This document shows, one piece after another, positions 3,657 to 25,535 of a stretch of 32,000 nucleotides of DNA. Position numbers and translations under genes: made by a program. Where the stretch lies: NCBI RefSeq assembly GCF_040207875.1, contig NZ_CP157942.1, positions 202,001-234,000 on the forward strand, in the 5' to 3' direction. The stretch comes from Wolbachia endosymbiont of Armadillidium arcangelii (GTDB taxonomy: Bacteria; Pseudomonadota; Alphaproteobacteria; Rickettsiales; Anaplasmataceae). Numbering within the stretch: the stretch's first letter is position 1; each line of letters opens with the position of its first letter. Below the pieces are notes generated by a model. It was given only the letters and a program-made list of their open reading frames with translations, did no database searches and was not told the DNA's origin.

Positions 3657-5789
3657 ATGTATCTATTAACCTTTTTTAACATAATAGTAAATTATATACG
3701 TAACAATCTACGCAATGAAAAATATAACCTGATACTGTGGGTTCCTGTTTTTCAGTGTGTAGGGGCCTTAACCTATTTTTCCCTAAATTGTGAACCAAGC
3801 TGTATATCTATTTTTCTTTTGCTTTCACCTATACTAATTTTGATTGCCATATTACATAAAAAGTACGCGATATTATGTATCGCTTTAATTGCAGTGCTTG
3901 TAGGATTTACAGCCAGCAAATTAAGAACGGCTTCAATAGACACTAAAATCCTCGACAAAGAAAAGTACGTAAAAGATATTGTTGCTACAGTGAAGGATAT
4001 TAACGATAGGGGCTCATATAAACAATTTTTGCTTTCTGTCTCTACTATCTCAAAATCCTCTCCTGTCATCCCAGCACCCCCTTTTGTCATCCCAGTACTT
4101 GATACTGGGATCCAGAAAAAAAAGATATGGTCACGCGCTGGAATGACACCGGATAGAGCTCTAGATAACATCAGAATATCAGTTATAACTAAAGTGGAAG
4201 AAGGCATTAAAATAGGCGATCAAGTAAAATTATCAGCAAAACTCTTCCCTCTAAAGATTGCGCCTTCGGAGTATGCATATGATTTTGCACGAATAGCATA
4301 TTACCAGAAAATAAGTGCAACAGGTTTTGCAACAAGCAAAATAGTCCTGCACAAGAAGGCTGAAGCAAGGAAATTTCAGGAGTATATAGAATCTTTCCGT
4401 CAGTATATCTATGAAAACCTGCAGCAAAATACCAAAAAACCACATGCGGACATAATTTCTGCATTATTAATTGGCAAAAAAGACGGGATAGATCAAAAAA
4501 CTATGAATGCAATACGAGACTCAGGTATAGCACATTTATTCGCTATATCTGGTCTACATTTATCGTTCGTTGCTGGTCTATTTTTTATAGTATTTCGTAA
4601 TTTATTCGCAATATCTGAAACTTTGACTCTTAAGTATAACACCAAGAAAATATCTGCATTCCTTACTATTTTACCAACCACGTTTTATTTATTGATCACT
4701 GGTATGCAAATTTCCGCTCAGCGTGCCTACATTATGGTGATTTTAGTACTCGTTGCAATAATGATAGAGAGAAAATATCGAGGATTAATAGCAATTGCGT
4801 TTGCTGCTTCGGTGATACTTATAATAGAACCAGAAGCAATCTTAAAACCAGGCTTTCAGATGTCATTTTCTGCTGTCTTGGCGTTGGTTGCCAGTTATCA
4901 GATTAATGCCAATAAATTTTTAAAAATAAAAATAATAAAATATTTTGTGTCGATAATGATCAGCTCAGTAATAGCAAGCTTAGCAACGGTTCCATATACA
5001 ATATATAATTTTAATTATTTTTCAATCAGCGGCATTATTACAAATCTGATTGCCATACCAATAGTTACACTCATTATTATTCCACTTGGAATAATCTATG
5101 TTTTGTTGATTCCCTTAGGCATTGAGTGGATTATAACGCCGCTAATAGAACGACCAATTGAAAGCGTTTTGTACATAACAAATGCAATAGCTAATCTTCA
5201 GTATCTAATTATTCCCATTCGCACTTTTCCTGCCTCATCAATTATTATCATAACACTTGGTTTATTGTGGCTGTGCTTGTGGGAAAGAAATTGGCGTTTC
5301 TTGGGAATTTTCTTTATTGTGCTGGGTATTTGCTTTAGCACCGCATATAAAACCCCCGACATCCTAATAAATGCTGATAATGTTGCTGTAAAAGAAAGTG
5401 ATAACTTACTATATTCTCTCACCAGGAAAAATAGGAACTTTGTTGTCAAAACATGGGCGAAGCAAAATGGGCAGAACCAAATTTTGAATCATACAAAATA
5501 TAGCAATCCAGATAAAAGACTAAAGTGCAACGATTATGGCTGTATATATAATAAAGGAAATAGTAAGTCAGTGTTGCTAGCTTACAAAAAAGAAGATATT
5601 CTAGAAAATTGTGGTAAAGTTGATTTAATAATCCAACTAAGTGAATTCAACTATTCAGTTTGTAATACTAAAACTATCAAATATGCCGATTTAGGAACGT
5701 ATGGCACACATTCTGCTTGGTTAACAAATCGTTACGTAAAGATTAATACAGTGCGCTCCAATAGGCCTTGGCATATGTTGAAAAATTAA
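3657..5789 (+). CDS. comEC: DNA internalization/competence protein ComEC/Rec2 family (polytopic membrane protein)
   Basis: ComEC core block ISALLIGKKDGIDQKTMNAIRDSGIAHLFAISGLHLSFVAGLFF plus many TM helices. The listed start at 3525 runs through the tRNA-Met gene. I moved the start to the first ATG clear of the tRNA (3657, MYLLTFFNII...). Confidence 0.85.
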   Translation: MYLLTFFNIIVNYIRNNLRNEKYNLILWVPVFQCVGALTYFSLNCEPSCISIFLLLSPILILIAILHKKYAILCIALIAVLVGFTASKLRTASIDTKILDKEKYVKDIVATVKDINDRGSYKQFLLSVSTISKSSPVIPAPPFVIPVLDTGIQKKKIWSRAGMTPDRALDNIRISVITKVEEGIKIGDQVKLSAKLFPLKIAPSEYAYDFARIAYYQKISATGFATSKIVLHKKAEARKFQEYIESFRQYIYENLQQNTKKPHADIISALLIGKKDGIDQKTMNAIRDSGIAHLFAISGLHLSFVAGLFFIVFRNLFAISETLTLKYNTKKISAFLTILPTTFYLLITGMQISAQRAYIMVILVLVAIMIERKYRGLIAIAFAASVILIIEPEAILKPGFQMSFSAVLALVASYQINANKFLKIKIIKYFVSIMISSVIASLATVPYTIYNFNYFSISGIITNLIAIPIVTLIIIPLGIIYVLLIPLGIEWIITPLIERPIESVLYITNAIANLQYLIIPIRTFPASSIIIITLGLLWLCLWERNWRFLGIFFIVLGICFSTAYKTPDILINADNVAVKESDNLLYSLTRKNRNFVVKTWAKQNGQNQILNHTKYSNPDKRLKCNDYGCIYNKGNSKSVLLAYKKEDILENCGKVDLIIQLSEFNYSVCNTKTIKYADLGTYGTHSAWLTNRYVKINTVRSNRPWHMLKN
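4064..4150. repeat. Wolbachia palindromic-element-like repeat inserted in frame inside comEC
   Basis: tgtcatcccagcacccccttttgtcatcccagtacttgatactgggatccagaaaaaaaagat... matches the core of the element at 30351-30420 and the repeat at 27585-27702. It translates as PVIPAPPFVIPVLDTGIQKKKIWSRAGMTP without breaking the frame. Confidence 0.6.
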
Positions 5790-18221: not shown

Positions 18222-19886
18222 ATGGCAATTAATGATTTTGATCAGCAAAGAAGCGCAGAAGTGATTATTAATAATATGCAAAACGTTTTTTGCAAGAAGG
18301 CAAATAAGGCTACTGCCGAAGAAATTAGGCCAGTTGAAGTTGTCATACCTACGCCTAACCAATTCTGTAACAAAGCTAAGGAATGTGAGACTGAAAAAGA
18401 TCGGTGCGAACAAAACAAGCAAACGTGCGAGCAAGATAAGCAGAAGTGCGACCAGGATAAGCAAATATGCGAGCAAGATAAGCAGAAGTGCGATCAGGAC
18501 AAGCAGAAGTGCGACCAGGATAAGCAAATATGCGAGCAAGATAAGCAGAAGTGTGATCAGGATAAGCTAACATGCGAGCAGGACAAGCAGAAGTGCGATC
18601 AGGATAAGCAAGTATGCGAGCAAGATAAGCAGAAGTGCGATCAGGATAAGCAAATATGCGAGCAAGACAAGCAGAAGTGTGATCAAGACAAGCAGAAGTG
18701 CGACCAGGATAAGCAAACGTGCGAGCAAGACAAGCAGAAGTGCGATCAGGATAAGCAAATATGCGAGCAAGATAAGCAGAAGTGCGATCAGGATAAGCAA
18801 ATATGCGAGCAAGATAAGCAGAAGTGTGATCAGGATAAGCTAACATGCGAGCAAGATAAGCAGAAGTGTGATCAGGATAAGCTAACATGCGAGCAAGATA
18901 AGCAGAAGTGTGATCAGGATAAGCAGAAGTGCGATCAGGATAAGCAAACGTGCGAGCAAGATAAACAGAAGTGCGAAGATCGAGCTAAAAGCTGTCAAAA
19001 CGAGAAGGATAAGTGTGATATAGAAAACAATCAGCTAATAAGGGATATAGAACGTTGTAGAACAATAAAAGAAAGACTTGATAAAGAAGCTCTGGAGCTC
19101 AAAAGCAAGATAGAGTGCTTTAAAGCTGTAAAGGAAGGGTGTGATAAAGAGAAGCAGCAACTCAACAGCAAAATATATGATCTTGAAGATGAAAAGCTAA
19201 AACTTGGTAGAGACTTAGAACGAAATAAAAAAGAAAAAGAGGAATGTGACAAAGAGACTCTTAAGCTTGAAGGCAAGATAAAATGCTATAGAGCTGAAAA
19301 AGAAGGATGTGATGAAGAAAAGCAGCAACTCAGAGACAAAATACGTGATCTTGAAGGTGAGAAGCATAAGCTTGATACAAAAATTATTGAACTCAAAAGA
19401 GATATAGAACGGTGTAAAGATGAAAAATGTGAAGTAAAAAAAGAATATTGCACTAAGACAGAAGAAATCGAAAGCAATCTTAAAATGACTTTTGAATCAG
19501 AAAAAAGTAAAGAAATAGATTGTGAATATCTTAATAAGCTAAGAGATGATCTGGTAGTAAAATCAATTAAAACTGGTGAAAAAGCTGGCAGTGCAAATAT
19601 ATCATACTGGTATTTTGAAGATGATAAATTATATTACGGTAAGCAAGGTACTATAACAAGTCCATATGAATTAGAAAAAGACAGCATTTACTTAAAGGTG
19701 CTGACTAGTAATGAGCAAAAACCGTACTATCAATTAGGTATCTGCGACAAAGGTGGTAGCTTAGTTACAAAGCTTGATTTGTCTACAGATGATATAGATA
19801 TAAGCATATGTAACATGGTAGGTGGAGAGAGGATCACTGCCATTAAGTTAAGGGAAAGTGATGGACTGTATTGTAAAATCAGGTAA
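18222..19886 (+). CDS. Cysteine-heptad repeat / coiled-coil protein; the 3' end is replaced by IS4 sequence
   Basis: 27 near-identical C-[DE]-Q-D-K-[QL]-x heptads, then 3 degenerate heptads, a diverged 2 x 56-aa K/E-rich duplication (aa 287-398), and a non-repetitive C-terminal domain. The last 16 codons and the stop (from 19834) lie inside the IS4 terminal repeat. Confidence 0.75.
   Translation: MAINDFDQQRSAEVIINNMQNVFCKKANKATAEEIRPVEVVIPTPNQFCNKAKECETEKDRCEQNKQTCEQDKQKCDQDKQICEQDKQKCDQDKQKCDQDKQICEQDKQKCDQDKLTCEQDKQKCDQDKQVCEQDKQKCDQDKQICEQDKQKCDQDKQKCDQDKQTCEQDKQKCDQDKQICEQDKQKCDQDKQICEQDKQKCDQDKLTCEQDKQKCDQDKLTCEQDKQKCDQDKQKCDQDKQTCEQDKQKCEDRAKSCQNEKDKCDIENNQLIRDIERCRTIKERLDKEALELKSKIECFKAVKEGCDKEKQQLNSKIYDLEDEKLKLGRDLERNKKEKEECDKETLKLEGKIKCYRAEKEGCDEEKQQLRDKIRDLEGEKHKLDTKIIELKRDIERCKDEKCEVKKEYCTKTEEIESNLKMTFESEKSKEIDCEYLNKLRDDLVVKSIKTGEKAGSANISYWYFEDDKLYYGKQGTITSPYELEKDSIYLKVLTSNEQKPYYQLGICDKGGSLVTKLDLSTDDIDISICNMVGGERITAIKLRESDGLYCKIR
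18405..18971 (+). repeat. 21-bp coding minisatellite, 27 units (tgcga[gc]ca[ag]ga[tc]aagca[ga]a[ac]g-type)
   Basis: Directly visible periodicity. Codons 62-250 of the 554-aa ORF. All overlapping ORFs in other frames or on the other strand show the same 7-aa period. Confidence 0.95.
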
Positions 19887-21410
19887 GATCCACAAATTAA
19901 AAGAAGTAATGACATGAGTAAAAAAAAGAATAATCATGTTTATAAAAAATAAATTGATGAGTTTAAACTTTATAAACGCACACAGAGCATCCTCAAAAGA
20001 CTTCTCACGAAAAAGAAAGCTGCCCTTCATTAATGTATTTCTCCTGATTTTTAGAAAGAGTGTAAAGTCATTACAAGTAATGCTTAATGAGTTTGTTCTG
20101 CATACAAGAAAAGATTACACAATTACGGCAAGTGCATTTACTCAAGCAAGAAAGAAGCTAAAGCATACTGCGTTTTCAGAGTTAAATGATGATATAGTTT
20201 CCCTATACTACCAAGATCAGGAATTTAAAACCCACCATGGCTTCAGAGTACTTGCATTTGATGCTTCAATACTGATTCTGCCAAAGAGCGACAAAATAAT
20301 AGGCGAGTTTGGCTCAAGAGCAGTATGGAATGGAATCCAGAGATTTGAAGACTATACAAGTGCAACCTTTGAAGTTTGCTACGATGTGCTAAATAATATT
20401 GCAATAAAATCTGTGCTAAGTAGAGGTGACAGCTATGAGGTTGATTTAGCGATCGGTATGCTTGAATCCATAAAATCAGACGATTTGTTAATCTGTGATA
20501 GAGGATACGTATCTTATCGATTTCTTGCTGAGCTTACAGGAAGGAAAATCAATTATATAATTCGCTGTCCAAGTTCGTCTTTCAATGAAATAAACGCTAT
20601 GTTTAAGCCGGAAAGCCCATCTAGTATGGTGGTAGTGTCTACCGCACCTATTAAAGTAGCAAGACAGCTACGAAAGCTAGGATTACCTGATGAGATGAAA
20701 TTCAGGTTAGTCAAAATAATACTTTCTTCTGGAGAAGTTGAAGTGTTAGTAACATCTCTGTTAGATGAGCAAAGTTTTACAGTCGAAGAGTTTGAGAGAT
20801 TATATTACTTGCGCTGGGGAGTAGAAACATTTTTTTCTAGGCTGAAGGGAAGATTAAATTTAGAGAATTTCACAGGAAAAAGTATTGAAACTATCAAGTA
20901 GGATTTTTGGTCAACTATCTTCATCAGTAATCTAGAAAGTATCATGATAGAAGATGATGAAGAGACATTGAGCGCACAGAATAGTAAACTAAAAAAAAGC
21001 ATCAATAAATCTGTCTCATTTAATGCGATTAAAAACTTAGCCTTTGATATTTTTTCTACAGAGTCAGACATAGACTGCATTATGGATCGACTATCACAGT
21101 TATTTTTGATGAACACTTTAGTGGTAAGAAAAGGGAGAAGAGTTGATCGTCATAAGATATCTGATATTCGTTCACTCAACTACCAGAAAAGAGCTAGAAA
21201 ACATGTGTTTTAAATTCAAGATATCTTTTCAGTATCATTGCATTAGTACATTCTTTGCAAAATAACCTGCAATTATTACTTTTTTAAATAACTTGCACTT
21301 TTCAGACTCTCTTTTCTTAAAAATTCACCCTAGTATTTACCATAATTATCAATCACTTCAAATTTTTTGTCCAATCTTAACTTCTCTTTCCCTTAACTTA
21401 ATGGCAGTGA
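19834..21410 (+). mobile_element. IS4-family insertion sequence, copy 1 (1,577 bp; transposase inactivated)
   Basis: Terminal inverted repeats tcactgccattaagttaagggaaag at 19834-19858, and the reverse complement at 21386-21410. Nearly identical to the copy at 25921-27497, in inverted orientation. Confidence 0.9.
19936..21213 (+). pseudogene. IS4-family DDE transposase with a nonsense mutation (TAG at 20899-20901; CAG in copy 2)
   Basis: The 321-aa and 89-aa ORFs together equal the 425-aa protein of copy 2, apart from Q322->stop. The IS4 Y-(2)-R-(3)-E-(6)-K signature is present: YYLRWGVETFFSRLK. Confidence 0.9.
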
Positions 21411-22177
21411 AGAGAAGCTCCTCCTCGCTCGCTCAGCAGGCTTATCTGGTATAGATTATATCCCTGTACCGTCCTGAAAGTGTGGTATACTTCCTCCGCC
21501 GTTGCTCCTCCTCTAAGTAGTTCTTCCTCTCTCTCATCACTTGTGTTTTTTATTATCAAATCGATGTGGTGGTCGACTTTTTCTTTCATGCTCATCTTGC
21601 TGTAGAGATGTTCATCGAAGGTTATGAATAGATTTTTGATATATACCATTATTGGTCTAATTTCGTTGTGATTCTTGAACTTTTCGAGAACTTTTTCTAT
21701 TACTTCTTCTCTAATTGCGAGCACATCCGGCGCTTTTGACGTTTTTAAATCGCGAAATTTTTCTTTTACTACTTTCACAAAGTATTTTTCCGCCGCTTTC
21801 TGCTCTCTACTTGCATAGATTTTCTTTGCTTTGTGCGGATTGAAAGGTTCTGAAAGATAACTTCTATGTTCCGGAGGAACAGAAGTGCCATTTTTAAATC
21901 ATCTTACCTCCTCATTTTTTAAAACTTGTAGTAGTTCACTGCCAGTAAGACGCGTGTCGAAAGTTCTCGTCGGAAGTTTGCGCTCAATTGACTTTCCTCG
22001 CGCCTTAATTCTCCTTGCAGAATTGACCTGTGCTTGCACATGTTTACTGTTGAGATTAACTATGTGTATGCTTCCACGTATGCTGAAGTTGTGATGGACG
22101 CGATAATGAGAAGTTAAGCTTTTTTTTGCTTGACTCTTTTTTTCGTTTTGATATTCTTTACTTTGATTTCCTTTCAT
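21398..22177 (-). pseudogene. Unknown gene with an in-frame TGA (21899-21901) and a 3' end truncated by IS4 copy 1
   Basis: ORFs 22177->21899 and 21898->21398 share one frame, and translating by hand across the gap gives ...NEEVR*FKNGTSVPPEHRSYLSEPFNPHKAKKIYASREQKAAEKYFVKVVKEK.... The last three codons and the stop (HCH*) are IS terminal-repeat sequence. No family recognised. Confidence 0.55.
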
Positions 22178-22355
22178 AGGATGTTAGTAGTTTTTTTTGT
22201 TTGCGCTTTGAATTCTACTAAAAATTCAAATAAGTGTAAAGGGCAGAAATGCCCTTTACATAAATTCCCCTTAAAATCTAATGTTTACCAAGGATAGTAT
22301 AGCTTTATGCTATATAAAGCATATACCTTTTATTGTTTGATCTACAAATCCTTTA

Positions 22356-22384
22356 TTGAAAAATTCAGAAAAATGTTGTATAAT
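22356..22384 (+). promoter_or_regulatory. Sigma-70-like promoter P1 of TA cassette 1 (TTGAAA-17 nt-TATAAT)
   Basis: TTGAAA at 22356-22361 and TATAAT at 22379-22384. It lies within a ~58-bp block conserved upstream of all four antitoxin genes. Confidence 0.6.
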
Positions 22385-22408
22385 TACTGATAAACTTCGG
22401 TAAAACTT

Positions 22409-22648
22409 ATGGCGGATTCAAGGATTAATGTAACTTTCAGTAACGAAACCTCAGGTTGTCTTGCTGATTTGGCTAAAGCTACTAAGAAGCCTGTTCAAGA
22501 ATTAGCAGAAAAGTTAATCAGAAGGGCGATTGACGAAGTAGAAGATATTGCACTATCTCAAATTGTTGATGAGTGTGATACCCCAGATATGGAGATGATT
22601 AGAAGTAAGGATATAGACTGGAATACAGTTCTAAAAGATGGAGCATAA
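22409..22648 (+). CDS. RelB/ribbon-helix-helix-type antitoxin (cassette 1)
   Basis: 79 aa (MADSRINVTF...LADLAKATKKPVQELAEKLIRRAI), with an acidic C-terminus. Overlaps the downstream RelE-like gene by 11 nt. Confidence 0.8.
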   Translation: MADSRINVTFSNETSGCLADLAKATKKPVQELAEKLIRRAIDEVEDIALSQIVDECDTPDMEMIRSKDIDWNTVLKDGA

Positions 22649-22937
22649 GCTCAAATACGATATTATCTATTCAAAAAATATTCTTAAGAAAGATCTTCCA
22701 CGCATCTCAAAAGAAATAAGGTCAAGTATCATAAAAGCCATAGAAGAGCGACTGGCAGTTGATCCAATGAAATTTGGTAAACCGTTATATGGTAACTTCA
22801 AAGGACACAGAAGGGTAAGAGTTGATGATTACCGCATTGTCTATCGTGTGGACGTTATAGAATACAAAGTAATTATTGTTTCAATAAAGCACAGAAGTGT
22901 TGTTTATAAGCAAACAAAGTTATCAGATTTATTATAA
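22638..22937 (+). CDS. RelE/ParE-superfamily toxin (cassette 1)
   Basis: 99 aa. PLYGNFKGHRRVRVDDYRIVYRVD...VIIVSIKHRSVVY is the typical RelE/StbE C-terminal pattern. Confidence 0.85.
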   Translation: MEHKLKYDIIYSKNILKKDLPRISKEIRSSIIKAIEERLAVDPMKFGKPLYGNFKGHRRVRVDDYRIVYRVDVIEYKVIIVSIKHRSVVYKQTKLSDLL

Positions 22938-22940
22938 GTC

Positions 22941-22974
22941 AAAGATCTCTTCTGAATTTTTAGAAGAGATCTTT
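22941..22974 (+). terminator. Hairpin immediately after toxin 1 (13-bp perfect stem, 8-nt loop)
   Basis: aaagatctcttct gaattttt agaagagatcttt, starting 4 nt after the stop. It is followed by ATTGAAAA and overlaps the start of the P2 block. There is no long U-tract. Confidence 0.5.
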
Positions 22975-22975
22975 A

Positions 22976-23004
22976 TTGAAAATTTCAGGAAAATGTTGTA
23001 TAAT
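22976..23004 (+). promoter_or_regulatory. Promoter P2 of TA cassette 2 (TTGAAA-17-TATAAT)
   Basis: TTGAAA at 22976-22981 and TATAAT at 22999-23004. Same conserved block as P1. Confidence 0.6.
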
Positions 23005-23028
23005 TACTCATAAACTTCGGTAAAATTT

Positions 23029-23250
23029 ATGGCAGATTCAAGGATTAATGTAACCTTTGATACAGAAACCTCACAACACCTTATTGAGCTGGCTAAGGCT
23101 ACTAAGCAGTCTGTTCAAAAGTTAGCAGGAAAGCTGGTCAAAGAAGCGATCGAGCTTGAAGCAGAAGATATTGCGTTTTCTAAAATTATTAGGGAATTGA
23201 GTGATGATGATGCAGAAGAAATAGAAGATAGTGAAGACATCTGGAAATAA
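23029..23250 (+). CDS. RelB/RHH-type antitoxin (cassette 2)
   Basis: 73 aa, MADSRINVTFDTETSQHLIELAKATKQSVQKLAGKLVKEAI. Overlaps the toxin gene by 20 nt. Confidence 0.8.
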   Translation: MADSRINVTFDTETSQHLIELAKATKQSVQKLAGKLVKEAIELEAEDIAFSKIIRELSDDDAEEIEDSEDIWK

Positions 23251-23539
23251 ACGTTATACTCTCAAATATCTCAAACATGTTATTAAGAGGAATATACCTT
23301 CCTTACCAGAAGACATTAAACCAAGTATTAAAGAAGCAATAAAAGAATATCTAGAGACTGATCCTATTGGTAATGGTGTATCATTACGCAATAGATTAAA
23401 GGGACATCGCAGAATACGAGTGGGTGATTATCGTATCATCTACCGTGTAGATACTGCAAAACGTATAGTAACTGTTGTTTCGATAGGACATAGAGATAAC
23501 ATTTACAATCAGGCAATATTAGACTTACTAAAACGTTAA
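23231..23539 (+). CDS. RelE/ParE-superfamily toxin (cassette 2)
   Basis: 102 aa, LKGHRRIRVGDYRIIYRVD...VTVVSIGHRDNIY. Confidence 0.85.
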   Translation: MKTSGNKRYTLKYLKHVIKRNIPSLPEDIKPSIKEAIKEYLETDPIGNGVSLRNRLKGHRRIRVGDYRIIYRVDTAKRIVTVVSIGHRDNIYNQAILDLLKR

Positions 23540-24405
23540 ATCAATATCCTGCCAGTATTAACTTGATAAGGTACCGTAACCTTTCCAGTTGAGCCGCTTC
23601 TATTCTTTGCAACGTTTATCTCCAGTTCGTTATTAGAGCCTATTTTATAGTAGCTGTCTCTGTAGAGTAGTAAAACTATGTCAGCATCCTGTTCGATGCT
23701 CCCTGACTCTCTTAGGTCTGCTAGTTGCGGTCTTTTGTTTTGCCTTTCTTCTACTCTGCGACTAATTTGTGATAATGCTACAACAGGAACTTCAAAGTCT
23801 TTGGCGATGTTCTTTAAAGTTCTGCTGATCTCTGTTACCTCAAGAGTTCTATTCTCCGTTCTTCCTGATCCTCTGAGTAGCTGCAGATAGTCAATGTAGA
23901 TGCATTTTATGCTGTATCTTTTACAGATTGATGCGATTTTTTTTCTGAGGACATTTAAATCTATATTGCCTGAGTTATCGATGAGAATATTTAGAAAAGT
24001 TATTTGATTTATTCCGCGATATAAAAGATCCATATTTTCATTCTTGAGAATGTTATTTATTGTTTCATTCACTTCGATGCTGATTATTCTATTGATCAAT
24101 TGATTGGCTGACATCTCAAGTGAGAAGAAGCAGATGTATTCATGGTCATTTAAGAGCTTTGCGGCCTGTAAGGCCATGTATAATGCTATTGAGGTCTTAC
24201 CAATTGAAGTACGAGCGGCAAGCACAGTGAGCTCTCCTTCCTTGAAGCCACCTGTTATTCTATCAAGCTCCTCTATTCCTGTGGTCATTCCTTCGATGTC
24301 ACTCGTATTGCTGAGTAGCTTATTGATATAGTTTTTATAGTCTTTGAGATAGTCAAAGATTAACTTGACGTCCTCATCGACCCTGAGCCCTCCTTCCTGA
24401 TCCAT
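23536..24405 (-). CDS. DnaB-like helicase, C-terminal RecA-type ATPase domain only (289 aa)
   Basis: TGIEELDRITGGFKEGELTVLAARTSIGKTS (Walker A), IKCIYIDYLQLL (Walker B), ISRTLKNIAKDFEVPVVALSQISRRVE, LADLRESGSIEQDADIVLLLYRD. The N-terminal DnaB domain is absent. Its stop overlaps the toxin-2 stop on the opposite strand (TTAA at 23536-23539). Confidence 0.85.
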   Translation of the reverse strand: MDQEGGLRVDEDVKLIFDYLKDYKNYINKLLSNTSDIEGMTTGIEELDRITGGFKEGELTVLAARTSIGKTSIALYMALQAAKLLNDHEYICFFSLEMSANQLINRIISIEVNETINNILKNENMDLLYRGINQITFLNILIDNSGNIDLNVLRKKIASICKRYSIKCIYIDYLQLLRGSGRTENRTLEVTEISRTLKNIAKDFEVPVVALSQISRRVEERQNKRPQLADLRESGSIEQDADIVLLLYRDSYYKIGSNNELEINVAKNRSGSTGKVTVPYQVNTGRILI

Positions 24406-24588
24406 TCTTCACCTTAAACCGGAGGCTCCTCAAACTCAAGATCTTGTTTCGTCGCCTCTCCCAATGAGTTATATTATATTATTTATAAATAATATAATAT
24501 AACTTATAGTGGGGGGTACCCAAAAAAATGGTTATTTTTGAGCTGAGCAAAGCCACCTAAGGTGAAGAATGGATCAGGAAGGAGGGCT
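24386..24588. repeat. 31-bp perfect inverted repeat (arms 24386-24416 and 24558-24588) spanning the dnaB-like start codon
   Basis: The right arm taaggtgaagaatggatcaggaaggagggct is the exact reverse complement of the left arm. 141 bp lie between the arms. Confidence 0.9.
24467..24504. repeat. 38-bp perfect AT-rich palindrome
   Basis: agttatattatattatttataaataatataatataact equals its own reverse complement (checked base by base). It is centred between the 31-bp arms. Confidence 0.95.
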
Positions 24589-24604
24589 GTATAATAATAT
24601 ATTT

Positions 24605-24889
24605 CTACAGTAAATCTAATGGTATCTTATCATAAACATCTTTTCTATATCCTACTGAAGCAGGAATTATTTTATGTTCTGCAATGTTTATACGGTACAC
24701 AATACGACAATCTTTAGTTCTGAAGCTTCTATATCCTTTCAAATTACCACTTAGCGGTTTACCAACCTTGAATGGATTAAATGCAATTTCGTCTTCTATG
24801 AGTTTTTTTATTTTTTTTCTTATTTCTGGTGACAAGGGACGAAAATCTCTCTTAAAGATTTTTTCTGGGTAATCAACCTCATACTTCAC
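24605..24889 (-). CDS. RelE/ParE-superfamily toxin (cassette 3), divergent at conserved positions
   Basis: 94 aa, PLSGNLKGYRSFRTKDCRIVYRIN...GYRKDVY. It has the same architecture as the other three toxins, but GDYR is replaced by KDCR and HR by YR. Confidence 0.7.
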   Translation of the reverse strand: MKYEVDYPEKIFKRDFRPLSPEIRKKIKKLIEDEIAFNPFKVGKPLSGNLKGYRSFRTKDCRIVYRINIAEHKIIPASVGYRKDVYDKIPLDLL

Positions 24890-24896
24890 AATTTAT

Positions 24897-25133
24897 TTAT
24901 GCAGATAATAGTGTATCCCAATCTACATCACCGCCTTTAATCATCTTTGCATCAGGAGAATCAGTTTCCTTGATGATTTTCGAGAGTGCGATATTTTCAA
25001 TTTCACATTCGATTCCATCTATGACTAACCTTTTTGCTAACTTTTCAACTGACTCTTTGTTGAATGTAGCTAGTTGGGTGAGATTGTGGAGAGCTTTTGA
25101 GTTGAGTGTTATAACAACTTTTGAATCATCCAT
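24897..25133 (-). CDS. RelB/RHH-type antitoxin (cassette 3)
   Basis: MDDSKVVITLNSKALHNLTQLATFNKESVEKLAKRLVIDGI. I moved the start to ATG 25133, because the conserved leader ggtaaaattt directly precedes it, as in the other cassettes. Confidence 0.7.
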   Translation of the reverse strand: MDDSKVVITLNSKALHNLTQLATFNKESVEKLAKRLVIDGIECEIENIALSKIIKETDSPDAKMIKGGDVDWDTLLSA

Positions 25134-25161
25134 AAATTTTACCAAGATATACTGCTACATA

Positions 25162-25190
25162 AGTATACAACATTTTCCTAAAATTTTCAA
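25162..25190 (-). promoter_or_regulatory. Promoter P3 of TA cassette 3 (TTGAAA-17-TATACT)
   Basis: On the minus strand, TTGAAA is at 25190-25185 and TATACT at 25167-25162. Same conserved block. Confidence 0.55.
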
Positions 25191-25250
25191 TAAAGAATGG
25201 ATCAGCAAGGAGGGCTGTATAATGAAATATACTATGCTTATAGGAAGGTT

Positions 25251-25535
25251 CTAACTTTTATAGATGTATTCTCTATGCTCTATTGCAGTAATTATTACTG
25301 TACGTTCTAATTTACTTATCCTATAAACCAAACGATAATCACCAGATCGTATTCTACGATGTCCTTTGAACTCACCGAGTAATGGATCTCCTGCTTTTTC
25401 AGGAGAAAGTGTAAGACGCTCTTTTACAATTTCTTTTATCCTTGACCATATTGTCTTTGGAAGGTTTGAAATGTCTTTGTGAACTACATTTTCCTCATAG
25501 CAGATTAAATACTTATCACCAGTTGATGTCTTCAT
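25251..25535 (-). CDS. RelE/ParE-superfamily toxin (cassette 4)
   Basis: PLLGEFKGHRRIRSGDYRLVYRIS...VIITAIEHREYIY. The start is set at ATG 25535 (MKTSTGDKY...). This parallels MKTSGNKRY of toxin 2 and gives the same 20-nt overlap with the antitoxin gene. Confidence 0.8.
   Translation of the reverse strand: MKTSTGDKYLICYEENVVHKDISNLPKTIWSRIKEIVKERLTLSPEKAGDPLLGEFKGHRRIRSGDYRLVYRISKLERTVIITAIEHREYIYKS

Follow-up and report, generated by a model that had tools for sequence, protein, structure and literature searches.

The 32-kb stretch of DNA analysed here (hereafter the window, to whose positions all coordinates refer unless another sequence is named) comes from the Wolbachia endosymbiont of Armadillidium arcangelii and contains, at 24386-24588, a 203-bp module lying between a gene for a DnaB_C helicase and the toxin gene of a RelE/ParE-type toxin-antitoxin operon (Table 1). 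The module corresponds to the extragenic palindrome (EP) described in the Wolbachia plasmid pWCP, and we propose, tentatively, that it controls expression of the helicase gene. Two arms of 31 nt, complementary at 100% of their positions and separated by 141 nt, enclose a perfect palindrome of A and T residues, and the space to either side of this palindrome is filled by two asymmetric segments, S1 and S2. The palindrome is the longest in the window at 38 bp, and in 200 simulated 32-kb sequences (first-order Markov) palindromes reached a maximum length of 15.7 nt on average and of 26 nt at most. Its symmetry centre at 24485.5 is offset by 1.5 bp from that of the arms (24487.0), and, with up to three mismatches allowed, the window contains exactly two occurrences of the arm sequence, against none expected from 100 shuffles. 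The A/T-only stretch sits between C-rich and G-rich runs and has the composition of an AT-rich unwinding element; the G6 and A7 tracts that follow it occupy 24511-24516 and 24522-24528, respectively. Read on the minus strand, the near arm is TAAGGTGAAGA-ATG-GATCAGGAAGGAGGGCT, which includes a Shine-Dalgarno-like AAGGTG, the helicase start codon (ATG at 24405), six full codons and 2 nt of codon seven. In a transcript reading through from the toxin-antitoxin operon, the helicase ribosome-binding site and start have their exact complement in the far arm.

A sequence-only reading of this DNA had reported a perfect 38-bp palindrome almost midway between perfect 31-bp inverted arms, G and A tracts after the palindrome, and a left arm holding the ribosome-binding site and first codons of the helicase gene, and all of these observations are borne out by our analysis. 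The same reading envisaged that the whole module might extrude as a cruciform, and the predicted folds of a 213-nt stretch are far stronger than those of shuffled sequences, being -58.5 kcal/mol for DNA (z = -11) and -105 and -108 kcal/mol for RNA from the two strands (z = -12 and -13). Moreover, quasi-palindromic symmetry extends over all 203 bp: the motifs GG(A/T)GGCT and CTCAAA occur both in S1 and in the complement of S2, and the pair 24429-24485 and 24486-24542 shows 70% complementarity. The nested palindrome is a real, non-random and conserved feature.

Table 1. Features of the module and of the surrounding island (window positions).
Feature	Positions	Strand	Remarks
Near arm	24386..24416	-	Minus-strand read TAAGGTGAAGAATGGATCAGGAAGGAGGGCT; pairs with 24558-24588
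S1, asymmetric conserved segment	24417..24466	-	Plus strand GGAGGCTCCTCAAACTC...TTTCGTCGCCTCTCCC; long invariant alignment runs; proposed 5' leader of helicase mRNA
AT-only perfect palindrome	24467..24504	.	38 bp; dyad AT block at same position in every homologue
S2, second asymmetric segment	24505..24557	-	G6 run, A7 run, T-rich tract, GAGCTGAGC; proposed upstream promoter half (T-run, -35)
Far arm	24558..24588	+	Starts 16 nt past stop codon of upstream toxin gene
Candidate helicase-sense promoter	24494..24523	-	-35 TTGGGT 24523-24518; -10 TATATT 24501-24496 (spacer 16) or TATTAT 24499-24494 (spacer 18)
Helicase gene	23536..24405	-	Intact, 289 aa, only DnaB C-terminal domain; Pfam DnaB_C E = 2e-80
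RelE/ParE-type toxin-antitoxin operon	24605..25145	-	Toxin 24605-24889, antitoxin 24897-25145; promoter 25190-25162; co-oriented, directly upstream of module
Solo partial arm copy	25193..25216	+	24 nt, 96% match; between two toxin-antitoxin cassettes; ATTCTT junction
HP1 fragments	21398-22177	-	68% identity to residues 139-264 of pWALBA1 protein; split, cut by IS4
Plasmid-derived island	19834..27497	.	Two inverted IS4-family copies enclosing 4512 bp

In pWCP, EP was described as a 209-bp region of two nested palindromes between RelE-2 and DnaB_C (Reveillaud et al. 2019, PMC6401122), and a later paper names an amplicon 'RelE-2+EP+DnaB_C' together with primers EP-F and EP-R. Judged from this published description and from a primer match, the module appears to be a chromosomal copy of the pWCP element because position, size and anatomy agree: both have two nested palindromes, the lengths are 209 and 203 bp, and the arms and central palindrome seen here lie between the toxin gene (24605-24889) and DnaB_C (23536-24405). 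In addition, the EP-R primer is matched exactly at 24230-24251, within the helicase gene and oriented toward the module, and the mean column identity of the whole module to those of the Wolbachia plasmids pWALBA1 and pWALBA2 is 89%. The copy described here differs from that in pWCP in being chromosomal and in lying within an island flanked by IS4-family insertion sequences (IS). The sequence feature is already in the literature and the present locus is a new chromosomal member; what is new relative to the literature searched is the family-wide conservation of the element, the concerted evolution of its arms, the directional constraint on its interior, one natural inversion, and the argument that it is a control region.

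We compared 12 distinct modules, that in the window included. The others come from pWALBA1 (L001), pWALBA2 (L002), a Rickettsiales metagenome-assembled genome (L003), three metagenome contigs, Wolbachia of Cylisticus convexus, of a Drosophila species and of Cantharis cryptica, Logan assemblies, and a 9.9-kb plasmid-like contig from a spider assembly; a single contig, listed under two sources, accounts for both L003 and L025, and L026 derives from a Logan assembly that was produced separately. All 12 modules have a common layout, in which an arm is followed by S1 (GGAGGCTCCTCAAACTC...TTTCGTCGCCTCTCCC), the AT dyad, a G-run, S2 (ACC-A7...T-run-GAGCTGAGC...GCCACC) and the second arm, and the module adjoins the helicase start in every homologue having that gene. 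Its presence in pWALBA1, pWALBA2 and ten other distinct loci disposes of the alternative raised in the sequence-only reading, namely that the arms mark only a recent inverted-duplication breakpoint; the module is not such an artefact because it is conserved in homologous plasmids and islands. The same reading stressed the perfection of the AT palindrome. Here it is the dyad that is conserved and not the perfection: the AT dyad is always present, with mirrored substitutions and indels and with (TA)n-like drift of its length, centre and sequence, but it is a perfect palindrome in only two of 11 copies (38 nt in the window and 44 nt in L009), and even the nearest relative, from Cylisticus, has one palindrome mismatch.

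S1 is under purifying selection because it is more conserved (mean pairwise identity of 0.90) than the four-fold degenerate sites of the adjacent helicase gene (0.67); the corresponding value for S2 is 0.77, computed over a column set that included part of the palindrome. S1 adjoins the helicase gene at 11 of the 12 loci. Moreover, S1 and S2 stay mutually different in all lineages despite the homogenised arms that flank them, implying that the element has a selected direction. In the comparison of pWALBA1 with pWALBA2, the module is the best-conserved common block (94.9% over 235 bp). The arms of these two co-resident plasmids differ and their inner segments are ~99% identical, a near-identity that can be explained by recent exchange through crossovers in the arm core. 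In wStri (L008), the module decays along with the helicase pseudogene. One Logan assembly (L020, 1829-1929) lacks the palindrome and S1 between the arms, has a CCCC/TCGG junction and retains an intact helicase gene; this gap may reflect a true deletion or else misassembly at the palindrome. Viral contigs scanned for the S1 core yielded nothing.

The arms show an unusual mode of evolution. In an 11-sequence alignment, 98.2% of arm cells are paired, and 14 of the 31 arm pairs have changed on both sides, which was reached in none of 500 shuffles. About half of these double changes are transversions (GC to CG, TA to AT, CG to AT) and intermediates are rare, which argues for copying from arm to arm, by gene conversion or hairpin template switching, rather than for stepwise wobble compensation. 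Homologue L021 has 12 arm differences from the window, all of them mirrored in the partner arm, and its start codon is shifted to the outer end of the arm, so that the arms still cover the translation start. A solo 24-nt arm copy in L021, located upstream of a toxin-antitoxin promoter, keeps the canonical sequence; this "fossil" implies that both EP arms of L021 changed together at a later time. These data point to evolution of the arms in concert at the DNA level, and make them a clean natural case of such evolution in a short inverted repeat overlapping a translation start. In addition, the 141-bp inter-arm segment is inverted in L003 (2070-2278; also L025 and L026), with both outer flanks unchanged and an intact helicase gene of 292 aa, indicating that the arms do recombine, but rarely. 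The suggestion in the sequence-only reading of a recombination site thus gains support from the concerted evolution of the arms and from the inter-arm inversion in one lineage. No covariation supports an alternative pairing between S1 (AGCCTCC) and the near arm, since the arm varies and S1 does not, and the local hairpins predicted within S1 and S2 are either invariant or broken, and hence uninformative.

Our tentative reading of the module is that it is an expression-control region of the plasmid helicase gene, comprising a directional promoter and a leader together with a far arm that would block translation of read-through transcripts. Support is provided by the directional constraint on S1 and by the fact that S1 lies beside the helicase gene in 11 of 12 copies. 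The putative promoter would be built from the T-run and a TTGG-type -35 element in S2 and a -10 element in the S2-proximal half of the palindrome. This arrangement (T-run, TTGGnn in S2, C-run spacer, and TATACT or TATTAT in the palindrome half) recurs across the copies; the site is present in 12 of 12 homologues, and a consensus promoter scan calls an equivalent site in L001, L017 and L021. A transcript initiated there would carry the S1 leader and would present the near arm as an open ribosome-binding site and start codon. The far arm, being upstream of the candidate promoter, would be present only in transcripts reading through from the toxin-antitoxin operon, for which no terminator is predicted and whose toxin stop codon is 16 nt from the far arm, a gap too small to accommodate one. 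In such read-through transcripts, the far arm would pair over 31 bp with the ribosome-binding site and start codon, perhaps blocking translation, and the resulting duplex would probably be a substrate for RNase III. Structure predictions are consistent with this scheme in that the read-through RNA, which has both arms, has a predicted fold of -104.9 kcal/mol (z = -12) in which the 31-bp duplex takes up the whole start region, and an RNA starting inside the palindrome is predicted to be unstructured (-26.1 kcal/mol, z = -0.7). The combination of a near arm covering the start and a complementary distal arm holds in all homologues having the helicase gene. Helicase synthesis would in this way be insulated from the autoregulated toxin-antitoxin promoter, following the logic of IS10 fold-back inhibition. 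Arm identity might be maintained by hairpin template switching or gene conversion, and the same process could occasionally invert the inner segment.

Several observations, however, weigh against a role in helicase expression. Shuffled AT-rich sequence yields matches in the promoter scans at least as often. In pWALBA2 the module is intact, with 30 of 30 arm positions complementary, even though its helicase gene is gone and the arm is followed by a 34-aa open reading frame (ORF), and both pWALBA2 and L028 are without a co-oriented operon upstream of the far arm. In pWALBA1, both mismatches between the arms read T-G on the helicase-antisense strand, and so would be A-C in the helicase-sense RNA. 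Moreover, the helicase gene of L003 is intact although the inverted inner segment points the proposed promoter away from it, and a perfect stem of 31 bp far exceeds the needs of translational occlusion.

The sequence-only reading put forward an origin as one possibility. More broadly, the module might act in replication as an origin, a helicase-entry site or a single-strand priming site, with melting or extrusion of the AT palindrome, binding of an initiator to the arms, and loading of the adjacent helicase. We consider such a role unlikely, and less likely than control of helicase expression, even though several points speak in its favour. The pure-AT dyad is clamped by C and G runs and has A- and T-tracts of the bent-DNA type alongside, and the module adjoins the helicase gene. 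It is present in one copy per plasmid-type sequence examined, including pWALBA2, from which the helicase gene is missing, and one EP is likewise found in pWCP, where an IS disrupts the helicase gene (PMC6401122). Inversion is tolerated in one lineage, and G-T mismatches favour one strand by 6 to 1, as for a single-strand hairpin, on the basis of few events. The strong conservation of the block common to pWALBA1 and pWALBA2 can also be cited for a replication role, but the inner near-identity of these co-resident plasmids is explicable by recent exchange. There is, however, no DnaA box (TTATCCACA) at up to one mismatch within 24386-24588, nor are there iterons or a direct-repeat family, and neither directional conservation nor an 11:1 orientation bias is expected for a symmetric origin. 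The cumulative GC-skew minimum of pWALBA1, at 5148, coincides with a switch in gene orientation and not with EP; the skew, which the sequence-only reading had suggested as a check, tracks gene orientation and leaves no mark at EP. Nor does HP1, a candidate initiator, have a fold or family match. Finally, the interval between HP1 and parG offers a more likely origin candidate, canonical-looking at the level of sequence, in which two conserved DnaA boxes flank an AT-rich stretch, as described below. The inversion in L003 and L025 raises a different possibility, that of an invertible promoter switch or recombination site, in which the arms would be crossover sites and a 141-bp flip would turn the promoter toward or away from the helicase gene. 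The same inverted arrangement is present in the separately produced L026, a candidate directional promoter lies between perfect inverted repeats, the arms interact as DNA, as their concerted evolution shows, and the arms of pWALBA1 and pWALBA2 differ around near-identical inner segments as if these had been exchanged by crossovers in the arm core. We nevertheless regard this switch as quite improbable because only one of the 12 distinct loci is flipped, a single event for which rare RecA- or replication-mediated inversion suffices, and because no tyrosine or serine recombinase is found beside any copy. The neighbours are instead toxin-antitoxin pairs, the helicase, a PD-(D/E)XK Rpn-family protein, HP1 and IS transposases, and the module is internal to the island rather than at its edge, so it is not an integration site.

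A more specific version seems to us highly improbable. In it, the module would be a promoter cassette able to invert, with the same ribosome-binding site and start codon facing outward from either arm, and a flip would turn the promoter from the helicase gene to antisense transcription of the neighbouring toxin gene; if true, this would constitute an on/off switch for the plasmid replication helicase, driven by some recombination activity, perhaps that of the host. We also give very little credence to the idea that the module has no function of its own: on this view, the sequence upstream of the helicase gene was long ago duplicated in inverted orientation from a small AT palindrome, and hairpin template switching has since kept correcting one half toward the other. 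The quasi-palindromic character of the whole 203 bp and the residual similarity of S1 to the S2 complement fit such a history, as do the transversion-type double changes with few intermediates, which suggest copying over selection, the decay of the module with the helicase pseudogene in wStri, and the internal deletion in one assembly (L020). S1 is, however, more conserved than silent sites, the S1/S2 asymmetry is kept in all lineages, implying selection, and the module survived deletions on both sides in pWALBA2. Other candidate assignments were examined and rejected. A MITE-like (miniature inverted-repeat transposable) element is at odds with one full copy per locus and with flanks, CCCTG and GTATA, that are not a target-site duplication; an integration (att) site does not agree with the position of the module inside the island, nor a terminator of the toxin-antitoxin operon with the lack of any such prediction. 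An integron-like cassette site is not needed, given that the 6-nt ATTCTT is native to both the arm and the promoter-upstream region and that unequal or microhomology recombination suffices. A search of 24200-24800 against Rfam gave only matches to plant microRNA precursor hairpins, at no more than 49 bits against thresholds of 140-249.

The DnaA boxes mentioned above are separated by 117-127 bp and lie to either side of an AT-rich stretch, in the interval bounded by the 3' ends of a parG-like gene and HP1, in pWALBA1 (L001, 918-926 and 1045-1053), pWALBA2 (L002, 942-950 and 1069-1077), L028 (4925-4933 and 5042-5050) and, more weakly, L024 (2851-2859 and 2968-2976). Both boxes of L028 are perfect copies of TTATCCACA, in pWALBA1 and in pWALBA2 one box is perfect and the other deviates at one position, and L024 has one mismatch in each box at the spacing seen in the other plasmids; the expected number of perfect 9-mers in 18.8 kb is 0.14. 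The island in the window is without this region, and we found no mention of DnaA boxes in these plasmids in the literature searched. OriV-Finder has instead called 16-nt tandem repeats the oriV of pWCP (PMC12934988). Tandem repeats are present directly upstream of parA in L001 (18691-18767), L028 (5986-6032) and L002 (16755-16820), in the region called VNTR (variable number tandem repeat) and oriV in pWCP, and their units differ, being TGACACGTTGACTTAA (16 nt) in L001, TGTACAAGTGTACAAA (16 nt) in L028 and short AT-rich units in pWALBA2. These repeats look more like a partition centromere or operator because of their position upstream of parA and the divergence of the units between plasmids, an impression that by itself would leave more room for an origin at EP. 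As for HP1, which we considered as an initiator or recombinase, it has no Pfam family and no sequence match in the PDB, its AlphaFold model has a mean predicted local distance difference test score (pLDDT) of 58.6, and Foldseek gives no match below E = 0.07.

The locus is part of the Wolbachia chromosome of an isopod strain and not of an extrachromosomal plasmid, because housekeeping genes flank it on both sides and because the helicase protein maps to a 1.71-Mb contig, on which the Wolbachia endosymbiont of an Armadillidium species encodes a protein with 100% identity to it. The outer genes of the window encode a carboxyltransferase, Fpg, PdxH, ComEC, a pseudouridine synthase, a BrkB-family protein and a short-chain dehydrogenase. 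The IS4-family copies that bound the island (19834-21409 and 25922-27497) are inverted, 1576 bp each and 100% identical, with 28-nt terminal repeats; the pair resembles a recent composite arrangement and could invert the entire 4.5 kb. Within the 4512-bp interval are four RelE/ParE-type toxin-antitoxin pairs, the helicase gene and the broken plasmid core gene HP1; parA, parG and an intact HP1 are absent from the island. When a plasmid collection was searched with this interval, the sole matches were pWALBA1 and pWALBA2, and the interval is one of the Wolbachia "plasmid-like islands" described by Martinez et al. (PMC9560607). The sequence-only reading spoke of an otherwise decaying region, a description that does not apply generally: the helicase gene is intact, though the neighbouring HP1 is a pseudogene. 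The toxin-antitoxin cassettes (22347-23539 and 24605-25787), two per strand, converge on the helicase gene and encode ribbon-helix-helix antitoxins and toxins that are diverged paralogues, and all four have in common a promoter block of ~80 nt (TTGAAA, 17 nt, TATACT or TATAAT). Solo arm copies are located between toxin-antitoxin cassettes in the window (25193-25216), L012 (2197-2213) and L021 (566-582); each meets the promoter of the next cassette at the common ATTCTT, and they probably result from microhomology-mediated cassette stacking.

Other repeats and genes of the window were noted in passing. Just outside the island are two tandem TrbC/VirB2-type pilin genes (27784-28110 and 28226-28573, minus strand) with ~80% DNA identity. 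A long array of 21-bp tandem repeats (18295-19092) lies inside a 554-aa ORF without a Pfam match, and 72-bp repeats (16524-17099) lie inside the gene for a 914-aa leucine-rich-repeat protein. Perfect 28-nt inverted repeats, 1162 nt apart, bound a 1218-bp unit resembling a small IS (11261-12478), beside which are broken ankyrin-repeat ORFs (10053-11241). A 54-nt inverted repeat, whose two halves are 91% complementary and 66 nt apart, is present at 30313-30486, and dispersed copies of a short palindromic motif (GGGATGACA...CCAGTG...) at 4085-4115, 27586-27620 and 30370-30404 look like a small palindromic repeat family.

Wolbachia is not yet genetically transformable, and its plasmids are the obvious start for a vector, for which it must be known which non-coding backbone blocks are needed and what role each of them has. 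The EP block belongs to the conserved core of this plasmid family as a whole and, as we have argued, would be an expression-control element rather than an origin. Comparison with known systems places it among several kinds of nested or hairpin-forming DNA. The protelomerase targets of the phage-plasmid N15 (telRL/tos) likewise have a perfect central palindrome nested in flanking inverted repeats; there is, however, no protelomerase gene in the Wolbachia case, and the Wolbachia plasmids are reported to be circular (PMC6401122, PMC9560607). Like fimS, hin and the invertons of gut bacteria, EP has short perfect inverted repeats, a segment of ~140 bp and a candidate promoter near a gene start, and occurs in both orientations among lineages, but no recombinase gene is near EP and its repeats contain a ribosome-binding site and start codon.

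The single-strand origins ssoA and ssoU, known from rolling-circle plasmids, and the ssi/Frpo hairpins, known from conjugative and IncQ plasmids, are 150-300 nt long, imperfect and orientation-dependent, with conserved unpaired stretches, and belong to replication modules, and IncQ plasmids pair a small DnaB_C-like helicase with inverted priming sites. EP is similar to ssoA/ssoU and ssi/Frpo in being an orientation-dependent imperfect hairpin in a replication module, but no HUH Rep, primase or double-strand origin is annotated in the Wolbachia plasmids, and the hairpin stem is too short for both a -35 and a -10 element. IS10 and IS50 limit transposase translation by fold-back inhibition: their transposase promoter lies between inverted repeats, and the distal arm is present only in externally initiated transcripts. 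The stem in EP is perfect and, at 31 bp, much longer than that of IS10, and the gene is that of a helicase rather than a transposase. As in IS10 and IS50, nevertheless, the proximal arm covers the ribosome-binding site and start and the distal arm is complementary to it; if the candidate promoter between the arms is used, the distal arm would be limited to incoming transcripts.

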